Assembly (NCBI GenBank): GCA_048939995.1
Contig: JBHLOY010000014.1
Location: 1-57,479 of the forward strand
Direction: 5' to 3'
Length of the DNA stretch: 57,479 nucleotides
Origin: Promethearchaeota archaeon
Lineage (GTDB): Archaea; Asgardarchaeota; Lokiarchaeia; Sigyniarchaeales; SOKP01
In this document: positions 2 through 52,017 of the stretch, piece after piece
Position numbering within the stretch: the first letter of the stretch is position 1
Layout of the letters: each line of letters starts with the position of its first letter
Program-made: the position numbers and the translations under genes
Notes under the pieces: model-generated
Told to the model about the DNA's origin: nothing
Database searches by the model: none
Seen by the model: only the letters and a program-made list of their open reading frames with translations

Positions 2-2299
2 AATTATAAAATATCCAAAGATGATAAGGAACGATTCTTAGAAAAATGTAGGGAATGGGTAGAAAATAATATTAAAAAAATGACAACACAATTAGATGAT
101 TTAGGTTATTCCACTGATTGGGATTATACTTATAGAACAATGAATAAAGATTATTTAAAGAAAGTTCAGATATCTCTTTTAGATTTCTATAATAAAGGTT
201 TACTTTACAGAGAAAAATTTCCAACTCATTTTTGCGTAAATTGTGAGACTTCAGTAGCAAAAGCAGAAGTAGGGTATGAAGAAGAAAGCGGGAAACTATG
301 GTATATAAAGCTACCCTTAGTTGGGAGAAAAGATGAATATATCACCATAGCGACTACAAGACCAGAGTATATGGAAGCTTGTGTAGCGGTTCTCATTAAT
401 CCTAGGGACGATCGATATTATAATCTCTCCGCAGCAAAAGTTAAAATTCCTTTCACCTCTCGTACAGTGAATATTTTTATGGATGAAAATGTTGATATGA
501 GTTTTGGAACGGGAATTGTCTATGTATGCACCTATGGAGATGAGATGGATATTAAATGGAAGATTAACTACAATCTAGATGAGATCCAAATTTTTACTGA
601 AGATGGGCACATGAATGAAAATTCTAAATATAAGGGGCTAACTATTACGGAAGCACGAGAGAAAATAGCAGAGGATCTTGAAAAGGCGGGTTTAATCGAA
701 AAAATAGAGGATTATGAACATAGTATAATAATTCATTCTGAAAGATCCTCTTGTCGAAAACCAATAGAATATTTACCCGTATTTCAATGGTTTATCAATG
801 TAAAAGATTTCACAAATGAGATTATTGAATCGGCGGAAAGGATGAATTGGTATCCAGAGAAGCAAAAACAAAGACTTATAGACTGGGCTACAGGACTAGA
901 CTGGAATTGGGTAATCTCTCGACAGCGATTGTTTGGAACGCCAATTCCCTTTTGGTATTGCCAAGAGTGTAATGCTGTTATTCCACCAAAAAGAGAGGAT
1001 TTACCGTTAGATCCTACGAAATCCTCACCTCCAGTAAAGAAATGTCCAAAATGTAATAGTAGTATAATAATTGGTGAAAAAGATGTCTGTGATTGTTGGA
1101 TTGATTCGAGTATTTCACCGTTGGAAATATCTAAATGGTTAGAAGATAAAGATTTTTATGAAAAATCCTATATTAATGCAAAAGTTCACCGCTCTCAAGG
1201 TTATGAAATTATTCGAACCTGGTTATTTTATACATTATTTAGATGTAGAGTTTTAACTGGAAAATCACCTTTTTACGAGGCTATGATCAATGGAATGGTT
1301 GCTGGACCAGATGGAAGACATATGTCAAAGAGTCTGGGGAATTACATTTCACCCGAAGATGTAATGCCGGAATTTGGAACTGATGCAATTAGATATTGGG
1401 CAGCAATGGGTTCCTTAGGTGAAGATTATCCTTTTGAGTTTACTTGGTTAGAGCTCCAAACGAAACAACCAATCTCAAATGATATTATATTAAAAGATAT
1501 TAAAAAGCTTCCTACAGATAAATTTCAAAAAAAATATCGGAGAAAGTATGAACAATTAATTGGAGCTTCAAGGTTTATTACCAAAATCTGGAATGCATAT
1601 AGATTTTTATATTTAAACTTGGATCAAATTGAAATTAATGATCTAGAGTTTAAAATTGAAGAATTAAAAGCAATTGATTGTTATTATTTTTCTGAATTCA
1701 ATAAATATTCAAAAGCCATTGATAAGTACTTAGAGGGATACAATTGGCATGAAGCAATGATGGTTTTCCGAACATTCTTCTGGAATGATATTTGCGATAA
1801 CTATATAGAAGCTATAAAACACAGATTTTATTCAAAAGCCAAAAAGGAGAAAAAACGCGCTCTTAAAATCGCCTTAAACTTGTTTTACAAACTTTTACTT
1901 ATAAATTCTATTATTATGCCTTTTATTACCGAAGAAATTTACTCAATACTTTATAAGCCGTTTATAAATTTGCAATCTATCCATTTAGATAAATGGCCAG
2001 CCTGTTATGAAAATATTTCAAAAGAGTTGGTAACTCAAGGTAAAAACACAGTGGATATTATAAAAACTATCAGAAATATGAAATCAAATCTTCAAATTCC
2101 ATTAAGTCAAGAGGTCAAAGAAGTGATTATTATTACAAATGAAAAGATTTTAAAAAATACAGAAGAAGATGTTAAAAGTACACTAAGGATTAAAAATATT
2201 CAAATAGTTGAAAGTGATAAAGAAATTAACATTAAAGATACACCAGATCTAAAGGAAATGATTGAAGATTTAAATATGAAAATTTACTTTTTCAAATAA
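2..2299 (+). CDS. valS: Valyl-tRNA synthetase (5'-truncated by window edge)
   Basis: Frame is open from base 2. Motifs ATTRPE (editing domain), DWNWVISRQRLFGTPIP and GRHMSKSLGN (KMSKS variant), plus anticodon-binding helix bundle (KIWNAYRF, FWNDICDNYIE). Confidence 0.95.
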   Translation, partial: NYKISKDDKERFLEKCREWVENNIKKMTTQLDDLGYSTDWDYTYRTMNKDYLKKVQISLLDFYNKGLLYREKFPTHFCVNCETSVAKAEVGYEEESGKLWYIKLPLVGRKDEYITIATTRPEYMEACVAVLINPRDDRYYNLSAAKVKIPFTSRTVNIFMDENVDMSFGTGIVYVCTYGDEMDIKWKINYNLDEIQIFTEDGHMNENSKYKGLTITEAREKIAEDLEKAGLIEKIEDYEHSIIIHSERSSCRKPIEYLPVFQWFINVKDFTNEIIESAERMNWYPEKQKQRLIDWATGLDWNWVISRQRLFGTPIPFWYCQECNAVIPPKREDLPLDPTKSSPPVKKCPKCNSSIIIGEKDVCDCWIDSSISPLEISKWLEDKDFYEKSYINAKVHRSQGYEIIRTWLFYTLFRCRVLTGKSPFYEAMINGMVAGPDGRHMSKSLGNYISPEDVMPEFGTDAIRYWAAMGSLGEDYPFEFTWLELQTKQPISNDIILKDIKKLPTDKFQKKYRRKYEQLIGASRFITKIWNAYRFLYLNLDQIEINDLEFKIEELKAIDCYYFSEFNKYSKAIDKYLEGYNWHEAMMVFRTFFWNDICDNYIEAIKHRFYSKAKKEKKRALKIALNLFYKLLLINSIIMPFITEEIYSILYKPFINLQSIHLDKWPACYENISKELVTQGKNTVDIIKTIRNMKSNLQIPLSQEVKEVIIITNEKILKNTEEDVKSTLRIKNIQIVESDKEINIKDTPDLKEMIEDLNMKIYFFK

Positions 2300-2303
2300 A
2301 TCT

Positions 2304-3036
2304 ATGGGGAAAAAAAACACTTGTTGTAATTATTCCAGCATATAATGAAGAACTAACTATTTCTAAAGTCATTAAAAATGTACCATTATTTTCAGACCTT
2401 GATGAAGAAATAATAGTTACTGATGATGGAAATCAAGATTTTACTGCTGATATGGCTAAAAAAGCAGGAGCGATCATTATTCCCAATAAGATAAATTTGG
2501 GTTTGGGAAAATCATTTAGGGTTGGTTTAGAATATTGGCTAAAAAATAAAGCAGATATTATCGTTATTCTGGATGCTGATGGACAATACAATTCTAAAGA
2601 AATAAAACGATTAATTTGCCCTATATTAAGTAATAAAGCAGATTTAATGATGGGAAATCGTTTTATAAGCAGCAATACAACATATCAAGGGAATTCCATA
2701 AGAAAAATAGGGAATATAGTTTTGTCAATTTTTGTATCAAAAATGCTCTTAAAGTTAAACAATATATACGATGTACAGTGTTCTTTTAGAGCATTTAACA
2801 GAAAATTGGGGGAAATTTTAAAAAGGCAATTATTAGCTAAATACAATTATGCTCAAGAAATGTTTAGTATATCATGTTCATCTGGATTCACAGTCAAACA
2901 GACCCCAATTGATTGTTATGATAGAATTTCAGGTAAATCAAAATTAATTAAAGTTTCAGTAATCCATGTATTAAGAATTATTTGGATAAGCTTGAGAACC
3001 CTTCTAAAAATGAAAATACTTTCTATTAGAAGATAA
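2304..3036 (+). CDS. Glycosyltransferase family 2 (DPM1/polyprenol-phosphate mannose synthase-like); apparent +1 frameshift in A8 run at 2310-2317
   Basis: The frame of ORF 2452 extends upstream to LVVIIPAYNEE...IIVTDDG (from 2320), and DADGQY is the DxD motif. ATG 2304 is out of frame by one A. Confidence 0.85.
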
Positions 3037-3045
3037 GCTTGAATT

Positions 3046-4080
3046 TTATTCTTGCATATCTTCAAGTCCTAATTGAGAGATCATCGCCCTTTTTAGTTCT
3101 TCTTTATTTTTGGGTAATCCAAACATGTCCGCATATTTGTCAGTGGTTGTTAATTCATGGGTTCTTCCTTTTTTTGTAGCTGAAATAAGCTCATTGTCTA
3201 AAAGATATTTTACATGTTCATATGCTCCACTACCTCGTATTTTTACTACTGTCGACTTTAATATTGGTTGCTTTAATGCAATTATTGTTAAAGTCCTTAA
3301 GTTTGCTTCTGATATAGCGCCTCCTTTCGCAAATTTTGAAACCCTCTCTGTATATTCAGGTCTTAGTTGCATCTGATATTTCTCACCAACTTGTGCTATG
3401 ATAAGAGCACTTGAACGTTCAAGGTATTCAAACGCAAGTTTATTAACTAAATCTTCAGTATCTTGTTTCGAAATTTCTAGTTTAGTAGATAATTCTTCAA
3501 TATCTAATGGCCTTCCTGCAGCATATAGTGCACCTTCAATCAAATTCTGTTGAAAGTTTCTTAATTCAATCTCTAAATCTTTCTGTTCTAATACTTGGGA
3601 TTTGGCTTCATTCTCTAATTGAGATGAAGATGAAAATTTATTTTCATTTAACTGCTCCTTTACTATATTATTTATTAGATTAATTTCTTCTTCATGTAAC
3701 TCCAATTCTTCTTCAATCTCTAAATCTTCCTGTTCTAATACTTGGGATTTAGCTTCTTTCTCCAATTGAGATGAAGATGAAAATTCATTTTCGTTTAACT
3801 GCTCCTTTACTATATTATTTATTAGATTAATTTCTTCTTCATGTAACTCCAATTCTTCTTCAATCTCTAAATCTTCCTGTTCTAATACTTGGGATTTAGC
3901 TTCTTTCTCCAATTGAGATGAAGATGAAAATTCATTTTCCTTTAACTGCTCCTTTACTATATTATTTATTAGATTAATTTCTTCTTCACGTAACTCCTTT
4001 TCTTCTTCATTTTCTTGTATTTCATCATCAATTAATAATTCTTCATCCTCAATCTCGTCCTTTTGGTCAGGCTCTTTTAT
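3046..4080 (-). CDS. scpB: SMC-Scp complex subunit ScpB with acidic, tandemly repeated N-terminal extension; probable ATA start at 4080
   Basis: IEGALYAAGRPL, LRTLTIIALKQPI, KIRG and TTDKYADMFGL are ScpB motifs. Frame is open from TAA at 4101-4099, with SD-like AAGGTG upstream of ATA 4080. Confidence 0.9.
   Translation of the reverse strand: MKEPDQKDEIEDEELLIDDEIQENEEEKELREEEINLINNIVKEQLKENEFSSSSQLEKEAKSQVLEQEDLEIEEELELHEEEINLINNIVKEQLNENEFSSSSQLEKEAKSQVLEQEDLEIEEELELHEEEINLINNIVKEQLNENKFSSSSQLENEAKSQVLEQKDLEIELRNFQQNLIEGALYAAGRPLDIEELSTKLEISKQDTEDLVNKLAFEYLERSSALIIAQVGEKYQMQLRPEYTERVSKFAKGGAISEANLRTLTIIALKQPILKSTVVKIRGSGAYEHVKYLLDNELISATKKGRTHELTTTDKYADMFGLPKNKEELKRAMISQLGLEDMQE
3565..3997. 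repeat. About 2.9 copies of a near-identical 147-bp (49-codon) tandem repeat inside scpB
   Basis: TC(C/T)AATTGAGATGAAGATGAAAA recurs at 3614, 3761 and 3908 (spacing 147). Confidence 0.97.
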
Positions 4081-4107
4081 AAAATAACACCTTTTATTTT
4101 AGTATTT

Positions 4108-5121
4108 TTACTGTTTTAAATTAATTTTGAAATCCTTAAAATCTTCATCTTGAGATAAAATTAGCTTATTACCAGTAGATAAGAACATTAATGCTAAGAA
4201 CATTCTTACAAAGTCAAACATTTTACCAATATCACTTTCTTCTTCATTTTTAACAATTTCAGATATTTCGAAGAAGGTTATCTCTTTATTATCTAATTCG
4301 ACCTTGGCTTTTATTCTATTATACCATGAATCATGCAGTTCTTCGATAGTTTTTTCCTTACCACTAATGTGTTTCAACAATTCTTTTGGTAATTTAGCCT
4401 TTGATTTCATTTGAAGCCTTTGCTGTTTTAATTCTTCTCTTCTCAACCTTTGTCTTCTTAACTTTTCTTTATTTTGCATAGTTTCAATGATGGCTGATCT
4501 CATTGCCTCAAATAGTTCTTCTTTTGTAGAAACAAGTAACTTTGGTTGAATTGGCTGAGGTAACGTTTTTGGAATTGTTCTTGCGTGTTTTTCTCGTAGT
4601 TTTTCAAGTTCTTCTCTTTTTTGTATTTCTTCTTCTTCCTTAATTATACTAGAAATCTTGTAATGATGTAAATATGCTGAATTTTTTAAAGCAATTCCAG
4701 AAATCTTATAATTAATTAATTCCTCATGGAGCATATTGCTAAAAAATTTATCAACGAGAGAAGCTAAATCATAAAAAGCGACATTTGAATCTTTTGCTAA
4801 TTCAAAATCCAGCAGACTTGAAAATGGAGGTTTCTGCCAAAACTTAAGTTCTAATCTTTCTTTCTGTAATAAAGCCGGATCTTCTTCAACACCTGCTATT
4901 AGTTCTTCTTCTAAAACTTCCTTTATCTCAGATTCCTTAGTTCTATCGACAAAATCAGGATGGGAGATGATTTGATTTAACAATTTTATAATATCTATTT
5001 TCTTAGATTTGGAAGGAATCGTGATATTGTTTTGAGAGGCAAACTCTCTTAATTCTTTTACAGTCCAATTCTTGAAATTATTCGTTTCCTTTGATTTATT
5101 ATTCTCTGTAATTAATAGCAC
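4108..5121 (-). CDS. scpA: ScpA-like kleisin with N-terminal HeH/Rho-N-like domain
   Basis: Lies between smc and scpB. SGIALKNSAYLHHYKI resembles the kleisin N-helix and FVRMFLALMFL...LSQDEDFKDF the C-terminal winged helix. N-terminal WTVKELREFA...KSKKIDIIKLL. Confidence 0.8.
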   Translation of the reverse strand: MLLITENNKSKETNNFKNWTVKELREFASQNNITIPSKSKKIDIIKLLNQIISHPDFVDRTKESEIKEVLEEELIAGVEEDPALLQKERLELKFWQKPPFSSLLDFELAKDSNVAFYDLASLVDKFFSNMLHEELINYKISGIALKNSAYLHHYKISSIIKEEEEIQKREELEKLREKHARTIPKTLPQPIQPKLLVSTKEELFEAMRSAIIETMQNKEKLRRQRLRREELKQQRLQMKSKAKLPKELLKHISGKEKTIEELHDSWYNRIKAKVELDNKEITFFEISEIVKNEEESDIGKMFDFVRMFLALMFLSTGNKLILSQDEDFKDFKINLKQ

Positions 5122-5137
5122 CTCATATATTATAAAC

Positions 5138-8100
5138 CTAATTTTCTTCTACATTCGTAGGAATTTCTGAAATATCTAAAAGCCGTTTTGCTTCCTCCTC
5201 CAAGTCAACACTAAATACGTCTGTAATCCCCGATTGTTGCATTGATACCCCATATATTCTGTCCGCATTTACAATATTTTCCTCCCTATGACTTATAACC
5301 AAAAATTGGGCTTGACCCGAAATCTCTTTCAGCAACAGGGAAACCCTGTGAACATTTGGACCATCCAGCTGAGCATCGATCTCATCGAGAACGTAAAAGG
5401 GGCTGGGCATGAACTCTTGTATTGCAAAGATGAACGAGAGCGCGACGAGTGTTTTTTCGCCGCCGCTGAGAATCTCGAGGCTTGAAATTTTTTTGCCCCG
5501 GGGTCGAGCTTCGATGCTGATACCTCCTTCAAAGGGTTTATCAGGTCGGTCGAGGATCATTTTAGCTGAGCCGCCTGGGCTTAATTTTTGGAATAAACGG
5601 CTGAATTCTCTATTAATTTCATGGTAGGCTTTCATGAAGGTTCGAGTTTTTTCGAGTTCAATTTTTTCGATGGCGTCGAGTATAGATTTTCGTTCTCTTT
5701 GGATGGTTTGTCTTCGCATATCGATTTCGTCGAAGCGTTCTTTAACATTATCATATTGTTCTATGGCTTTTAAATTGACGGGTTCAAGGGCCTTTTGTTT
5801 TTTAGAGGCTTCCGAGATATCTGTTTGTAAGCCACTCTCAGAAAGGTCAGGAGTTACTTGGGGTAATGAGCCGTAATCTTTAGATCGTTGATACAAGGTT
5901 TCAATTTGATCTGATGTCATGATTTTTTTTGATTCATAGTTATTTAGTTTAGAATTTTCCATGGAGATGTCGGCTTTTAGGTCATTTAGAATCTTTTGAT
6001 AAGATTTTTGTTTTTTCCATGATTCATCTTTTTGTTGGATGAACGTATCAATTTCTTCTTGTTTTAGTCGCTTTTTCTCATCTTCGGCAGTTAAGCTTTC
6101 TTTTATTTTTTCGATATTTTGTAAAGTTGTATTTATTTGTTCTTCAGTGGTTTTAATATCTTCATTTAAAGAGATGATTTTTTGTTCACGTTCTTTATTT
6201 TTATTTAATTCATTTAATCTTTTTTGAGATTTTTGTAGGTCCTTGTTGAATCTATTTAATTCATTTTGGGTTTTTTTTTGAGCTTCAAGCGCCTCATTTT
6301 TTTCCTTACGTAGAGCATCGATTTGATTCTGAATTCCAGTGACTGTTGTTTCAATTTCTTTTACGTGAGAGTTGAATTCTTCGATGTTGTTTTGGCAGAT
6401 ATTAATATTTTTATCTGCCTCGATATTTTCTTTTGCCAGTTCTTCAATATTATTGATTACCATCATAATGTTTTCTAGTGCTCTAAGTTGATCCAACTTT
6501 TCTTGTAGTTTTTGATTAAGTTCGTCAATCTCTTGTCTAATTGCTTCGATATTTCCCCAATAATTTTCCTTTTCAATTACTAAATTATCAATCTTCTCAT
6601 CTAGATCATCTTGTTCCAAATTTAATTTATTGATTTCTTCTTTTGTCTGATTTATAATTTCTTCCTTCTTTTCGATAGAAATATCCAATTCTTTTACATT
6701 ATTTTCTATCTCCAATATATTTTCAAATAGATTCTGAATACCTTTTAGATCTTGTAACTTTATTTGTAAATCTTCTAGATCTTTTTGTTTAATATCGATT
6801 TCTGATTGAATAGTTGAAATTTTTTCCCAGTACTCATTTCTAAGATTTTTTAATTGCTCAATCTCACTCTTGAAATCGTCTTGTTGTAATTGATTAATTG
6901 AGGCATTTCTCTTCTGAATTTCCTCCTCTGATGTGGTGACAAACTGGTTAATTTCAACTATTCTTTTATTAACTTCTTCAAGTCTTTGGCTAAAATTAGA
7001 TAAATTTTCTGAATCATTCTTCTTTTGAGTATTTAATTCAGTTAATTTCATATCAACTTCATTTAGGTCTTCATTTTGGGAAGTTATATTTTCTGAAATT
7101 TCCTCTAATTGCTTGTATAATTCTTGGCTCTTAGACATAGTTAACTTTCTTAAAGATAAATACACATTCTCTAAGATTTCCATTAAGTCTTGCACAAAAC
7201 TATCGAAAGTAGATGTTGATTGTTGTATTTCTACGTCTGCGGATTCTTTGACCCTATTAATCAATTGATCAAGAGTCGTATCAACATTTTCAGTAAATAG
7301 TGTTAATGTTTGTAGAATTGAATTAAGCATTTGGGACATTTCAGATTTTTCTTCCTCATCTTCGCTTACAGTTTTAATAGATTTCATTATATCAACGATA
7401 TCCAAAACGAATTTCTTGAAATTATCGGCAGAAGATTCTATGGCTTCTGCATTTGATTGTTGAATATTGCTTTTTATTGATTCAACTGAAATATTAATGT
7501 TTTGAGTAAGCATATTTAGAATTTGAAGAATGCCTGTTACATCTTCAGTATTTCTTTCATATTCCTTTTCAGAATTTTCAATTTTTAATAATAAATTATC
7601 TTTTTCAGTAGTTAAGCCATTTATACGACTATTTATATTTTCCTTTTTAGTTTCTAGATTTTTTTGATCGTTTGTTGTCTCATTAAGGTTTTTCTTTAAA
7701 CTGCTTACCTTTAGATCTAAGTCTTTCTTTTCACGTTCTAAGCTTGTTAGTTCTTTTTTAGTTATTTTTAGTTTAGTATTTATATTCTCAATCTTTGCTT
7801 TATTATCAAATATTTCAGTTTCAATGGAACTCTGCTTCATAATCAGAAGCTCTAATTTTTGTTCATTCTTTCTATATGTTGAATCTTCCTGTTTCGCTTT
7901 TTCTTTGAGGTTATTTAGTTCTTTGGTTAGATTTTCTCGATTAGCTATAAGTTCCTTCAAAATTGCCTCAGTTTCTTTTCCTTTGCTTAATTCTTTAATC
8001 CTATTTTCAATGGACTCCTTTCTATTATTTAATTTTTGAATTCTGTCTCTATTCATTTTAATTTCTGTTTTAGTTGAAGATAGTTCAGATTGCAATTCTG

Positions 8101-16572: not shown

Positions 16573-17379
16573 TTATAGTTTGTTGATACTTACTGTCATA
16601 CCTCCATCTAAGACGATATTTTGCCCAGTTATGTAATCAGCTGCGGGAGATGCTAGAAATAGAGCTACATCAGCAACATCTTTTGCTTCTCCAATTCTAT
16701 CTATAGGAAGCTTCACACCTCTAGTTTGTAGAAGCATTCTAATCAGCTTCGGATCATTATTATATATAGGAGTTAATAATACTCCTGGTGAAATCGCATT
16801 TACAGTAATATTATTAGGGCCTAATTCAAGAGCCCATAATTTAGTAAACGCGAGAAGTGCTGCTTTACTAACACTATAAATACCAAAAAAAGGATTGTAA
16901 CCCCCTTCAATCCCTGCACAAGATATGATATTGATAATTTTACCTACTATTGGTTTAAATTGCTTTTGTCTCTTCATTCTTCTAAAAAAAGTTCTTGATA
17001 CATTCCATGCTCCCTTAGCATTAACTGCCATAACTTTATCATAGACTTGTTCTTTAGTTTTTAATGATGTATATAAACCACTATCAATACCTGCATTATT
17101 TACTAATAAAAATACATTATCAAACTTCTCAAAGACTTGATCTGCCATTGCTTTTACTTCATTTGAATTTGAAATGTCTGCTTTTACAATAAGTACCTCT
17201 ACATTAAAATTATTTAAGATAATATCTTGAGTTTCTTTCAGACCTTCCATATTAATGTCATTTATTACGATATCCGCACCTTTACTTGCGAAGGATTTTG
17301 CCATTTCTCTTCCAAAACCACTACTTCCCGCTCCTGTTATAAGCGTAACTTTTCCTTCTAAAAATTTTTCATGAATAAT
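16573..17379 (-). CDS. Short-chain dehydrogenase/reductase; start must be ATT (17379/17376) unless TGA 17382-17380 is read through
   Basis: Rossmann motif LITGAGSSGFG lies upstream of the ORF-track ATG; NNAG, YSVSK (YxxxK) and ITGQ...DGG. Confidence 0.9.
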   Translation of the reverse strand: MIHEKFLEGKVTLITGAGSSGFGREMAKSFASKGADIVINDINMEGLKETQDIILNNFNVEVLIVKADISNSNEVKAMADQVFEKFDNVFLLVNNAGIDSGLYTSLKTKEQVYDKVMAVNAKGAWNVSRTFFRRMKRQKQFKPIVGKIINIISCAGIEGGYNPFFGIYSVSKAALLAFTKLWALELGPNNITVNAISPGVLLTPIYNNDPKLIRMLLQTRGVKLPIDRIGEAKDVADVALFLASPAADYITGQNIVLDGGMTVSINKL

Positions 17380-17409
17380 TCAATCACCTTTCATAAGAAA
17401 TGATTTTAA

Positions 17410-44838: not shown

Positions 44839-44902
44839 AATTTAAACCATAAAAAAATTTTTGAATGGTTTACCTAAATTTGAAAAAAATTGAAAAGTTT
44901 AA

Positions 44903-45006
44903 TGGGAAAGGGGGGCTTCGAACCCCCGACCTCACGGTTATCAGCCGTGCGCTATACCAGGCTAAGCCACTTGAGAGTCTTCTCACCCAGAAAAGACTTC
45001 TCTCCC
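44903..45006 (-). tRNA. tRNA-Ile(GAT) with a 30-nt insertion (non-canonical intron) in the 5' acceptor strand
   Basis: Anticodon arm CACGG-CT-GAT-AA-CCGTG, T arm GGGGG-TTCGAAG-CCCCC and 3' strand CTTTCCC-A. The 5' strand is restored only after removing 44973-45002. Confidence 0.85.
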
Positions 45007-45214
45007 AGTGTACCTTCCCATTCTTGATTTACTGGGACTTTTTGTAAAGCCTCTAATTCATTAATTAAATTAAAAACAATAATTTTTAATTTTGATTGAA
45101 TGATTCAAATTATGGATAGCTAAAAAATTTTATTATATTATATTCTCTCCAATAAGCCTTAAACTTTAATAAATAAACATCTATTTTTTATTTACAATTA
45201 AAAAGTTTAATCAA

Positions 45215-48232: not shown

Positions 48233-48360
48233 TTCAGTTTTAGTAGGTTTTAATTACTAAAAAAAAATTTTTTCAAAAAAAAAAGTAGGGGGTGTAACTT
48301 TTTTATTTTTTAAAAAATTCCTTTAGAAGTAAAAGGAAATTTATTTTATAGGGTGAGCTT

Positions 48361-48774
48361 ATTAGAAGAGAAGATTGTACATTCTGTCAAATAATAGAAG
48401 GAAGGATCAATTCCAAAATGATTTATGATGATAAAAATGTTATCGCTTTTTTGGATATCTATCCTATTTCAAAAGGGCATTTGATTGTTGCTACTAAAAA
48501 TCACTATAAAAATATGGAAGATATACCTGATGAGGATCTTCTGAAAGTTTATAAAGTAGTTAAGAATTTAGCAAAATTAATCCATGAAAAATTGAATGTT
48601 GATGGCTATAATGTTTTACAAAACAACTTTAGAGCTGCCGGTCAAGTTATCGATCATTTTCACGTTCATATTATCCCTAGAAGCATTAATGATGATAGAT
48701 TCAAATTAAAAATTCCTAGAAACCAACCAAAAGAAAAAGAGCTTGATGAGATTTTAAAACTTTTAATTAATTGA
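48361..48774 (+). CDS. HIT family nucleotide hydrolase; probable ATT start at 48361
   Basis: HFHVH triad, AFLDIYP..GH and AGQ. The conserved CTFC lies upstream of ATG 48418, and there is an in-frame TAG at 48349. Confidence 0.92.
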   Translation: MRREDCTFCQIIEGRINSKMIYDDKNVIAFLDIYPISKGHLIVATKNHYKNMEDIPDEDLLKVYKVVKNLAKLIHEKLNVDGYNVLQNNFRAAGQVIDHFHVHIIPRSINDDRFKLKIPRNQPKEKELDEILKLLIN

Positions 48775-50185: not shown

Positions 50186-51991
50186 TTAATTTGGGATAAA
50201 ATAATATTCATCTATTCGCTTTTGATATTGGTCTTTTGCGCTACCCAATTTATTGACACGGGGTCTTTTTGTAGAAGAATCTCTACGAAAAGTAATTCCC
50301 ATTATTTTTAAAAATTTATTAAATCCGTCTCTCAGATTAAGTGGAACAAAAGCTTTTCCATTAATACCAGGAGTCCCTTCAAAAACTAAAATCGAATCAG
50401 CTATAAAATCTTGTGTTATTATATCGTGCTCTACCACAAAAGCAGCCTTCTTAATTTCTTCAATTGACTTTCTCAAAAGCTGAGCTACTTGTAATCTCAT
50501 TTCTACATCTAAAAATGCAGATGGTTCGTCAAAAAGATATAAATCAGCCTCATTAGTTAAACAATCAGCAATAGCCACTCTTTGTAGTTCTCCTCCACTT
50601 AGTTCTACTATTTTACGTTCGATTATATTTTCAAGATCTAAGGCATTTAAAATTCTTTTCTTATAGGATTGGCTAAAATAAGGGGATAATTTTATTTTTT
50701 TTACTAATTCAGAGACTAAATTGAGGCGATCAATCTTTATATATTGAGGTTTGACAGAGACATTAAATTTGAGATTACCATCTAAATTGTTTGGCTCAGA
50801 ATCAATCATTTCTATTATAGAATTTATAAATGTAGTTTTACCGATCCCGTTGGGTCCTAAGATCCCAATTATCTCTCCAGCATGTATTTCTGTTCCCATT
50901 ACTTTTAAGTGAAAATTCCCCAATTTTTTTTCGAAATCTTCATAATTAAAAATTACTTTACCTGTATCAAATGATGAATCTATTGGAGGTCTTTCGTGAA
51001 ATACAATTGGCTCTTCCCTGATTCTCAAGTTTTCATCTTTAATATATCCATTTAAATAGATGTTTATTCCTACTCTTACGCCTTGAGGGTGAGAAATAAT
51101 ACCATATACGCTAGGTTCACCATAGAACAATGAAATATAATCACTTAAATAATCCAAAATTGCCAGATCATGTTCAACTACTATTATGATTTTGTTTTCC
51201 TTTGCCAGAGATCTAATTATTTTAGCCATATTTATTCTCTCACTAACATCTAAATATGAACTTGGTTCGTCAATTAGATAAACATCCCCATTTTTTAGAT
51301 ATGCTGCAGCAATAGCGACTCTTTGTAGTTCACCTCCAGATAACACCTTAATCTCCCGATCCAATATTTCAGTAAGATTTAGGGCATCTGAAATCGAATC
51401 TAACTTATTATCTTCATCATTTTTACTTAAAAGATCAAAAACCCTGCCTGAAACAAATTTTGGAATAGCTGTTATATTTTGTGGCTTATGAACAATAGTT
51501 ATTTTTCCCTTTTTTAAATCAAGGAAGTATTGTTGCAGTTCTGATCCTTTAAAAAAATCAATAATTTCATCGTCGTTAGGCACTGATTCATCAAATCTTC
51601 CGAGATTAATAATTAAATCTCCTGACAGAATTTTTAACATAGTAGTTTTTCCTATACCATTTTGCCCAATTAACCCTAAAACTTTTCCCTTTTTAGGAAT
51701 AGCCATTCTAAAAAGAGAAAACTGGTCTGGCCCATATCGAAAAATTATTTGATTTTTTAAAGGGTCTGGTAAATTAACTATGCTAATTGCTTTAAAGGGG
51801 CACTTTTTAATACAGATTCCACAACCAGTGCATAAATTTTCTGTAATTTCAACAAATTTACCACTTGGATTTAATACAATTGTTTTATCACCTGTTCTTA
51901 CTCTCGGACAATATTTAATACATGGCTTTTCACCAAATGGACTACATTTATCAGGTTTACAACGATCTTTATTGAGAACCGCAATCCTAAT
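50186..51991 (-). CDS. rli: ABCE1/RLI ribosome-recycling ATPase; start ATT 51991 (or ATA 51994)
   Basis: Two ABC domains (GQNGIGKT, GPNGIGKT, LSGGELQR twice). The N-terminal FeS domain RIAVLNKDRC...CTGCGICIKKCPF lies upstream of ATG 51706. Confidence 0.96.
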   Translation of the reverse strand: MRIAVLNKDRCKPDKCSPFGEKPCIKYCPRVRTGDKTIVLNPSGKFVEITENLCTGCGICIKKCPFKAISIVNLPDPLKNQIIFRYGPDQFSLFRMAIPKKGKVLGLIGQNGIGKTTMLKILSGDLIINLGRFDESVPNDDEIIDFFKGSELQQYFLDLKKGKITIVHKPQNITAIPKFVSGRVFDLLSKNDEDNKLDSISDALNLTEILDREIKVLSGGELQRVAIAAAYLKNGDVYLIDEPSSYLDVSERINMAKIIRSLAKENKIIIVVEHDLAILDYLSDYISLFYGEPSVYGIISHPQGVRVGINIYLNGYIKDENLRIREEPIVFHERPPIDSSFDTGKVIFNYEDFEKKLGNFHLKVMGTEIHAGEIIGILGPNGIGKTTFINSIIEMIDSEPNNLDGNLKFNVSVKPQYIKIDRLNLVSELVKKIKLSPYFSQSYKKRILNALDLENIIERKIVELSGGELQRVAIADCLTNEADLYLFDEPSAFLDVEMRLQVAQLLRKSIEEIKKAAFVVEHDIITQDFIADSILVFEGTPGINGKAFVPLNLRDGFNKFLKIMGITFRRDSSTKRPRVNKLGSAKDQYQKRIDEYYFIPN

Positions 51992-52017
51992 TATGCTTCA
52001 CCACATCTTTAAATGAA

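Follow-up and report, generated by a model that had tools for sequence, protein, structure and literature searches.

Probable initiation at ATT, ATA, and ATC codons behind Shine-Dalgarno motifs in a Promethearchaeota genome, very probably including the gene for ABCE1

Where does translation of the ribosome recycling ATPase ABCE1 begin when the part of its reading frame that encodes the iron-sulfur cluster domain contains no ATG, GTG, or TTG? The question is raised by a contig of an archaeal MAG of 3.75 Mb and 30% GC in 38 contigs, with an assembly completeness of 98%; the stretch that we analyzed, referred to here as the window, is this one entire contig of 57,479 nucleotides. Related contigs carry the labels Promethearchaeota or Promethearchaeia (Loki-type Asgard archaea). 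NCBI taxon labels are inconsistent in this group: contigs with 73–90% identical ABCE1 are named Promethearchaeota, Odin-, Hod-, Hermod-, or Thorarchaeota, and apparently belong to one genus or family.

From stop to stop, the ABCE1 frame is open for 603 codons (50186..51997, minus strand), and its 5' end reads TGA-AGC-ATA-ATT-AGG-ATT-GCG, preceded by GTGG. A tiny ORF, ATG-TGG-TGA (window 52003–52008, minus strand), ends at the stop that bounds it; in relatives this ORF is absent or out of frame. The first ATG, GTG, or TTG in the ABCE1 frame is an ATG at codon 98 (51706). Pfam places Fer4_RLI at residues 4–38 and Fer4 (4Fe-4S) at residues 50–72, both wholly upstream of this first canonical start, followed by two ABC_tran domains. 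The identity of the gene is supported by this order of domains, an N-terminal Fer4_RLI plus 4Fe-4S and then two ABC ATPase domains, and by 75–90% identity to orthologues in Promethearchaeota MAGs. Across 77 related species, the codon aligned to our ATT is ATG in 63, TTG in 12, and ATA in 1, the last in a MAG 84% identical to ours. The 20 same-genus and same-order genomes have ATG or TTG at this position followed by R-I-A-V (M/L-RIAV), with a GGTGA, GGTTGA, or GGTGG motif kept at equal distance from the start, and within the genus the N-terminal 90 residues are 83–100% identical. A sequence-only reading of the window had proposed that the iron-sulfur domain precedes the first canonical codon of a TGA-bounded frame and that ATT stands where homologues have methionine; Pfam and the orthologues agree, and the essential ABCE1 gene very probably starts at ATT. 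Coordinates for this and the other genes discussed are collected in Table 1.

Table 1. Features of the window with putative or probable near-cognate starts
Feature	Coordinates	Strand	Details and basis
ABCE1 (Rli1-type ribosome recycling ATPase), redefined CDS	50186..51991	minus	601 codons from ATT; stop-to-stop ORF, Pfam, orthologues
ABCE1 putative ATT start codon	51989..51991	minus	6 nt after GGTGA; aligned with orthologue starts
ABCE1 Shine-Dalgarno GGTGA	51998..52002	minus	Sequence; its TGA is the in-frame stop bounding the ORF
ABCE1 Fe-S cluster domain codons ahead of first ATG/GTG/TTG (flagged interval)	51707..51988	minus	95 codons without a canonical start
SDR oxidoreductase	16573..17379	minus	Candidate start ATT 17377–17379 or second ATT 17374–17376; SD GGTGA 17384–17388
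HIT-family hydrolase	48361..48774	plus	Putative ATT start 48361–48363; SD GGTGA 48352–48356; ORF 48352..48774
GT2 glycosyltransferase (extra, fifth case)	2296..3036	plus	Probable ATA start 2296–2298; ORF 2266..3036
ScpB, acidic repeat-bearing N-terminal region	3046..4080	minus	ATA start 4078–4080 (probable); SD AGGTG 4088–4092; frame 3046..4098

Two further genes present the same situation in shorter form. The SDR oxidoreductase matches adh_short from residue 10 (model position 1), with its first ATG at residue 26, and the HIT-family hydrolase matches DcpS_C from residue 9 and HIT from residue 18, with its first ATG at residue 23 (both Pfam). The Rossmann motif of the former and the CxxC motif of the latter were said to lie ahead of the first ATG, and they do, as does the domain start of the latter. 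SDR relatives have ATG, TTG, or GTG a few codons ahead of F-L-x-G-K, or CTG in two species, and one relative has an ATT start after a 1-nt indel that put its ATG out of frame. The nearest HIT relatives have ATG at the ATT position, with ATG-AGA-AT.-...-TGT aligned to our ATT-AGA-AGA-GAA-GAT-TGT. In the NCBI record of this contig, both proteins already begin at ATT: SDR is 268 aa long and begins MIHEKF, and HIT is 137 aa long and begins MRREDC. The distance from GGTGA is 4 or 7 nt for the two candidate ATTs of SDR and 4 nt for HIT; a spacing as short as 4 nt counts against the HIT start and the first of the SDR candidates. A tiny ORF, ATG-AAA-GGT-GAT-TGA (window 17383–17394, minus strand), ends at the stop that bounds SDR and is not kept in relatives.

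A fifth case, additional to those first flagged, is the GT2 glycosyltransferase, in which Pfam matches Glycos_transf_2 from residue 21, ahead of a first ATG at residue 63. Its relatives have an ATG three codons ahead of K-x-L, and the ATA listed in Table 1 is the probable start. NCBI places the GT2 start at two different ATH codons (ATT, ATA, or ATC) on sister contigs, and one sister call begins MNLWGKK at our ATA. This ATA overlaps the TAA stop (2297–2299) of the upstream 739-aa gene, giving ATAA at window 2296–2299 (plus strand), a near-cognate counterpart of the classic ATGA start/stop overlap, an arrangement typical of translational coupling.

For ScpB, the evidence is of a different kind. 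The first TTG comes at residue 63, ahead of the Pfam domain, which does not begin until residue 186, and the original argument from domain position is thus left unproven. What does stand is the agreement of orthologous start sites: the nearest relative reads GGTGA-TATTTT-ATT-AAA-GAA where ours reads GGTGT-TATTTT-ATA-AAA-GAG, and other relatives have ATG, TTG, or CTG (GGTGA + 6 nt; CTG in 5 species) heading the same acidic N-terminus. Two relatives, G002 and G008, have no canonical codon until 167–174 codons downstream, within the conserved part of the protein. The ATA, 6 nt past AGGTG(T), is the probable ScpB start. In the acidic N-terminus (window 3046–4098, minus strand), about 49 residues are duplicated in tandem (EEEINLINNIVKEQL...ELELH, repeated), and the TTG picked by gene callers falls within a repeat unit. 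For ABCE1, SDR, HIT, and ScpB alike, the Shine-Dalgarno (SD) motifs and spacings given in the sequence-only reading are correct, at 4–7 nt. Elsewhere in the window (5110–5124, minus strand), the called GTG (5119–5121) of the gene at 4108..5148 sits inside GAGGTG; that GAGGTG could instead be the SD for an ATT at 5110–5112, 5–6 nt downstream, and the start of this gene is ambiguous.

We extended the analysis to the whole genome by anchoring on SD motifs (GGTGA, AGGTG, GAGGT, and GGAGG) at the 5' edge of open frames of at least 120 codons. This test covers a minority of genes because a 5-mer SD is present in front of only about 9% of canonical genes. A canonical start was counted wherever ATG, GTG, or TTG fell between codons −2 and +3 relative to the codon 5–7 nt past the SD. 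By this definition, 222 of the 329 SD sites at 5' edges of long open frames have a canonical start nearby and 107 do not. Canonical starts peak at a spacing of 5–7 nt (78 ATG and 55 TTG/GTG); after GGTGA in particular they peak at 5–8 nt, and ATH codons peak at 5–7 nt. At the 107 sites lacking a canonical start, the codon at 5–7 nt is ATT in 36 cases, ATA in 22, ATC in 9, GTA in 4, and CTG in 3. The three ATH codons together thus make up 67/107 (63%), versus 12% over the five in-frame codons that follow (Fisher p ~6e-27). After background subtraction, the test gives direct support to about 60 genes (2%), or about 1 in 5 SD-led genes. We also tabulated, for each codon type, how often an SD accompanies it across all pre-start codons; this measure was too diluted (1.24x for ATT, 1.13x for ATA) and was set aside in favor of the SD-anchored test. 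The four SD-led genes that have GTA at this distance, with neither a canonical nor an ATH codon in its place (C13:243019-244314, C19:130428-132764, C13:48036-49175, and C17:387910-389286), encode the large subunit of a NiFe-hydrogenase, a helicase-nuclease of the Hef type, a radical-SAM protein, and a protein with an amidotransferase domain. GTA may serve as a start in rare cases, though 4/107 is not above background.

A second estimate comes from the length of open frame ahead of any canonical start. Among 3240 open frames of at least 100 codons, 85 have at least 40 codons before any canonical start, and 71–74 of these 85 pre-start stretches, depending on the filter, show coding-like codon usage (74/3221 long ORFs). 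Counts at thresholds of 30 and 40 codons fit a geometric decay with an ATG/GTG/TTG codon frequency of 3.7%, which extrapolates to about 10% of genes, an upper-range estimate in which pseudogene or intron-split fragments may be included. An SD motif precedes 26/71 of the long-extension candidates (37%) versus 240/2679 canonical starts (9%), and is thus about four times commoner; this excess fits a strong SD compensating for a weak codon. We examined 20 further candidates with an SD and a near-cognate codon, translated from the proposed start. In 11–13 of these, a Pfam domain starts before any canonical codon is reached, with model positions 1–5 at residues 4–22; the families are flavodoxin, folE2, NifH-like, MoaE, PALP, DEAD/Hef, ABC, and two Ras-like GTPases, and none look truncated or fragmentary. 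In sum, ABCE1, at least four other genes of the window, and about 2–10% of all genes very probably start at ATT, ATA, or ATC, about 6 bases past a ribosome binding site.

We consider it highly probable that these genes use near-cognate initiation, at ATT most often, then at ATA and ATC, and tentatively at CTG and GTA, behind an SD motif and in a lineage with relaxed start-codon discrimination. Three features of the sequence point this way: no canonical codon precedes the conserved domain of ABCE1, SDR, HIT, or GT2, an SD motif stands at canonical spacing, and the corresponding codon in orthologues is a canonical start. ATG, TTG, CTG, ATT, and ATA also interchange at orthologous start sites. 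Mechanistically, the SD (core GGTGA, AGGTG, or GAGGT) would base-pair to the 16S rRNA 3' end, bringing the codon 5–7 nt downstream into the P site. The 16S rRNA 3' end was not found with a conserved pattern, and the anti-SD is assumed to be the standard archaeal consensus. An ordinary Met-tRNAi would presumably initiate there despite the mismatch at the third position, a near-cognate codon being tolerated if start-codon discrimination is relaxed in the Promethearchaeia (Loki-type) lineage. Weak starts may lower or tune expression, with a strong SD compensating.

A candidate for self-regulation of this system is the initiation factor aIF1 (Pfam SUI1). In ten genus relatives (loci L207-L216), the part of aIF1 that precedes the SUI1 domain lacks any canonical codon, and an ATT is conserved at codon 4, behind AGGTTGTGA and upstream of the zinc-knuckle. 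Such a start could set up a feedback like that of bacterial infC and IF3. A second SUI1 copy is present in each of two genomes, G005 and G007; of these copies, one starts with GTG and the other with ATG. A profile search and tblastn did not find aIF1 in the studied assembly. Its neighbors in relatives are likewise absent, and a gap in the assembly is therefore the likelier reason for its absence.

Several other readings of these loci deserve weight. Translation could start at an ATG just upstream of the bounding stop, with TGA read through or recoded: ABCE1 and SDR both have an in-frame ATG 2–4 codons before their bounding TGA, and TGA is over-represented among the bounding stops of the 67 SD+ATH sites (TGA 30, TAA 27, and TAG 10). 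This excess arises because a GGTGA at 6 nt is in frame. The upstream ATG, however, is not conserved, and relatives of ABCE1 and SDR have a canonical start at the ATT position; such an ATG is present at only 4/67 sites, probably by chance. HIT is bounded by TAG and ScpB by TAA, the long ORFs are open under translation table 11, with TGA terminating 507/3240 ORFs, and no UCA-anticodon tRNA was seen among the roughly 24 detectable tRNA genes. We rejected read-through on account of the unconserved and infrequent ATG, and regard it as extremely improbable. It is also very unlikely that the genes really have ATG, obscured by sequencing or consensus errors, or are broken as pseudogenes or frameshift fragments. 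The genome is a MAG of 38 contigs, and some of the long pre-start ORFs are indeed adjacent fragments (e.g. C17:201450-202099), but errors would not place ATT, ATA, or ATC exactly 5–7 nt past an SD 67 times. Independent assemblies repeat the non-canonical starts (ScpB CTG in 5 species, aIF1 ATT in 10 species, and ABCE1 ATA in another MAG), and Pfam models align from position 1–5 near the proposed starts, showing that these are not fragments. Position specificity, recurrence across assemblies, and intact Pfam N-termini led us to reject this reading as well.

If the real start were instead the downstream ATG or TTG, the proteins would be shorter and the extensions untranslated. Prodigal-type public calls do use downstream starts, and ScpB started at its TTG would have 288 aa, as long as its orthologues. 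Against this, the short forms would drop the Fe-S domain of ABCE1, the Rossmann TGAGSSGFG of SDR, and the CxxC and first strands of HIT, and the extensions are open, coding-like, and conserved as protein (83–100% in ABCE1); we think downstream initiation highly improbable. A last alternative concerns the decoder rather than the start site: a dedicated or modified initiator tRNA, with an altered anticodon or a C34 modification as in mitochondria, might read AUH as cognate. That AUH is so strongly favored among the near-cognate codons (67 ATH versus 3 CTG) is reminiscent of mitochondrial AUN initiation, but CTG, TTG, and GTG are used too, which argues for a general wobble tolerance. No tRNA-Met or initiator gene was available for inspection among the roughly 24 tRNA genes detectable genome-wide, many of which have introns: ARAGORN run both with and without introns, Rfam RF00005 applied to the genome, patterns for the anticodon loop and the acceptor, and scans of GC islands yielded no credible initiator tRNA or tRNA-Met. 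One intron-containing tRNA in the window (44902–45020, minus strand) is called Glu-TTC with a 29-nt intron by ARAGORN, has a partial Rfam match at 44908–44972, and was detected only with intron-aware settings. A special initiator tRNA seems to us unlikely.

How far does the pattern extend in the Asgard archaea? We sampled 400 kb each of a genome of the same genus (G008) and of a closed genome of the same order (G026), and 200–400 kb of each outgroup. The ATH share at SD sites is 5/8 in G008 and 3/5 in G026, and both show an excess of long pre-start frames as in the studied genome. Four other Asgard classes have ATH at 10/59 sites in total, including 2/14 in a genome of 30.8% GC, and in these small outgroup samples the pattern is provisionally weaker or absent. 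The suggestion, made from the window alone, that the lineage selects starts in a relaxed, SD-driven way fits both the genome-wide ATH peak and the pattern in G008 and G026. The wider proposition, that the Promethearchaeia (Lokiarchaeia) share a relaxed regime in which about a tenth of genes and about a fifth of SD-led genes start at AUU, AUA, or AUC, essential genes included, and in which aIF1 itself is made from a conserved AUU, is one that we hold to be evenly balanced.

NCBI translation table 11 permits ATT, ATC, ATA, and CTG as alternative initiators. Gene finders that accept only ATG, GTG, and TTG would cut short the proteins with near-cognate starts. The expectation that N-termini would be widely mis-annotated was borne out in part: Prodigal-type (Logan) calls are truncated, the NCBI record starts ScpB at the internal TTG, and the GT2 calls are inconsistent; for SDR and HIT, by contrast, NCBI already has the ATT start. 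If near-cognate starts, familiar so far as uncommon exceptions, do serve several percent of genes in a free-living archaeon, ABCE1 among them, then Asgard genomes need a different annotation, with truncated N-termini affecting fold predictions, domain inventories, and analyses of 'eukaryotic signature proteins'. The lineage would also offer a natural system with altered stringency of aIF1/eIF1-type start selection, and would bear on how start-codon selection evolved toward that of eukaryotes.

Initiation of this kind is already known; what is new is quantitative, the scale on which near-cognate codons are used. In bacteria, E. coli infC and pcnB have SD-led AUU or AUA starts, and such genes number a handful per genome. 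An ATT start is likewise described for Enterococcus ebpA (PMC4447247). The genes described here resemble these in their normal SD spacing, in the pairing of a weak start with a good SD, and probably in decoding by the initiator tRNA. In both settings a fidelity factor gene has AUU, infC in bacteria and, as a putative start, aIF1 in the ten genus relatives. They differ in number, with about 60 directly supported genes here, perhaps 10% of all, including the essential ABCE1, and in machinery, which is of the archaeal/eukaryotic type (aIF1, aIF1A, and aIF2) here versus IF3 in bacteria. Our literature search found no systematic account of near-cognate starts in Asgard archaea and one anecdotal ATT case, the Kariarchaeaceae tubulin AtubA, for which a 'rare ATT start codon' was described: the deposited protein is N-terminally short, and an upstream ATT with a plausible ribosome binding site restores the fold (PMC13394414). 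AtubA is a single rare case from another Asgard family, with no genome- or lineage-wide claim attached.

Two systems in which non-AUG initiation is common or regulatory differ from the present one in how the codon is positioned. In mitochondria (NCBI tables 2 and 5), AUU, AUA, and AUC are routine starts that have no SD, and AUA has been reassigned to methionine and is read by a modified tRNA-Met. Initiation in the Promethearchaeota genome appears to be positioned by the SD, and nothing here indicates that internal AUA means methionine. In eukaryotes, eIF1 is autoregulated via its own poor start context, near-cognate starts (CUG) are regulatory, and start selection depends on scanning and Kozak context. 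The conserved ATT of aIF1 in the genus relatives is like eukaryotic eIF1 in that the fidelity factor itself would be made from a weak start (start-codon stringency is reviewed in PMC4705826). Here, unlike in eukaryotes, positioning of the codon would fall to the SD, and the predominant near-cognate codons are AUH, not CUG.
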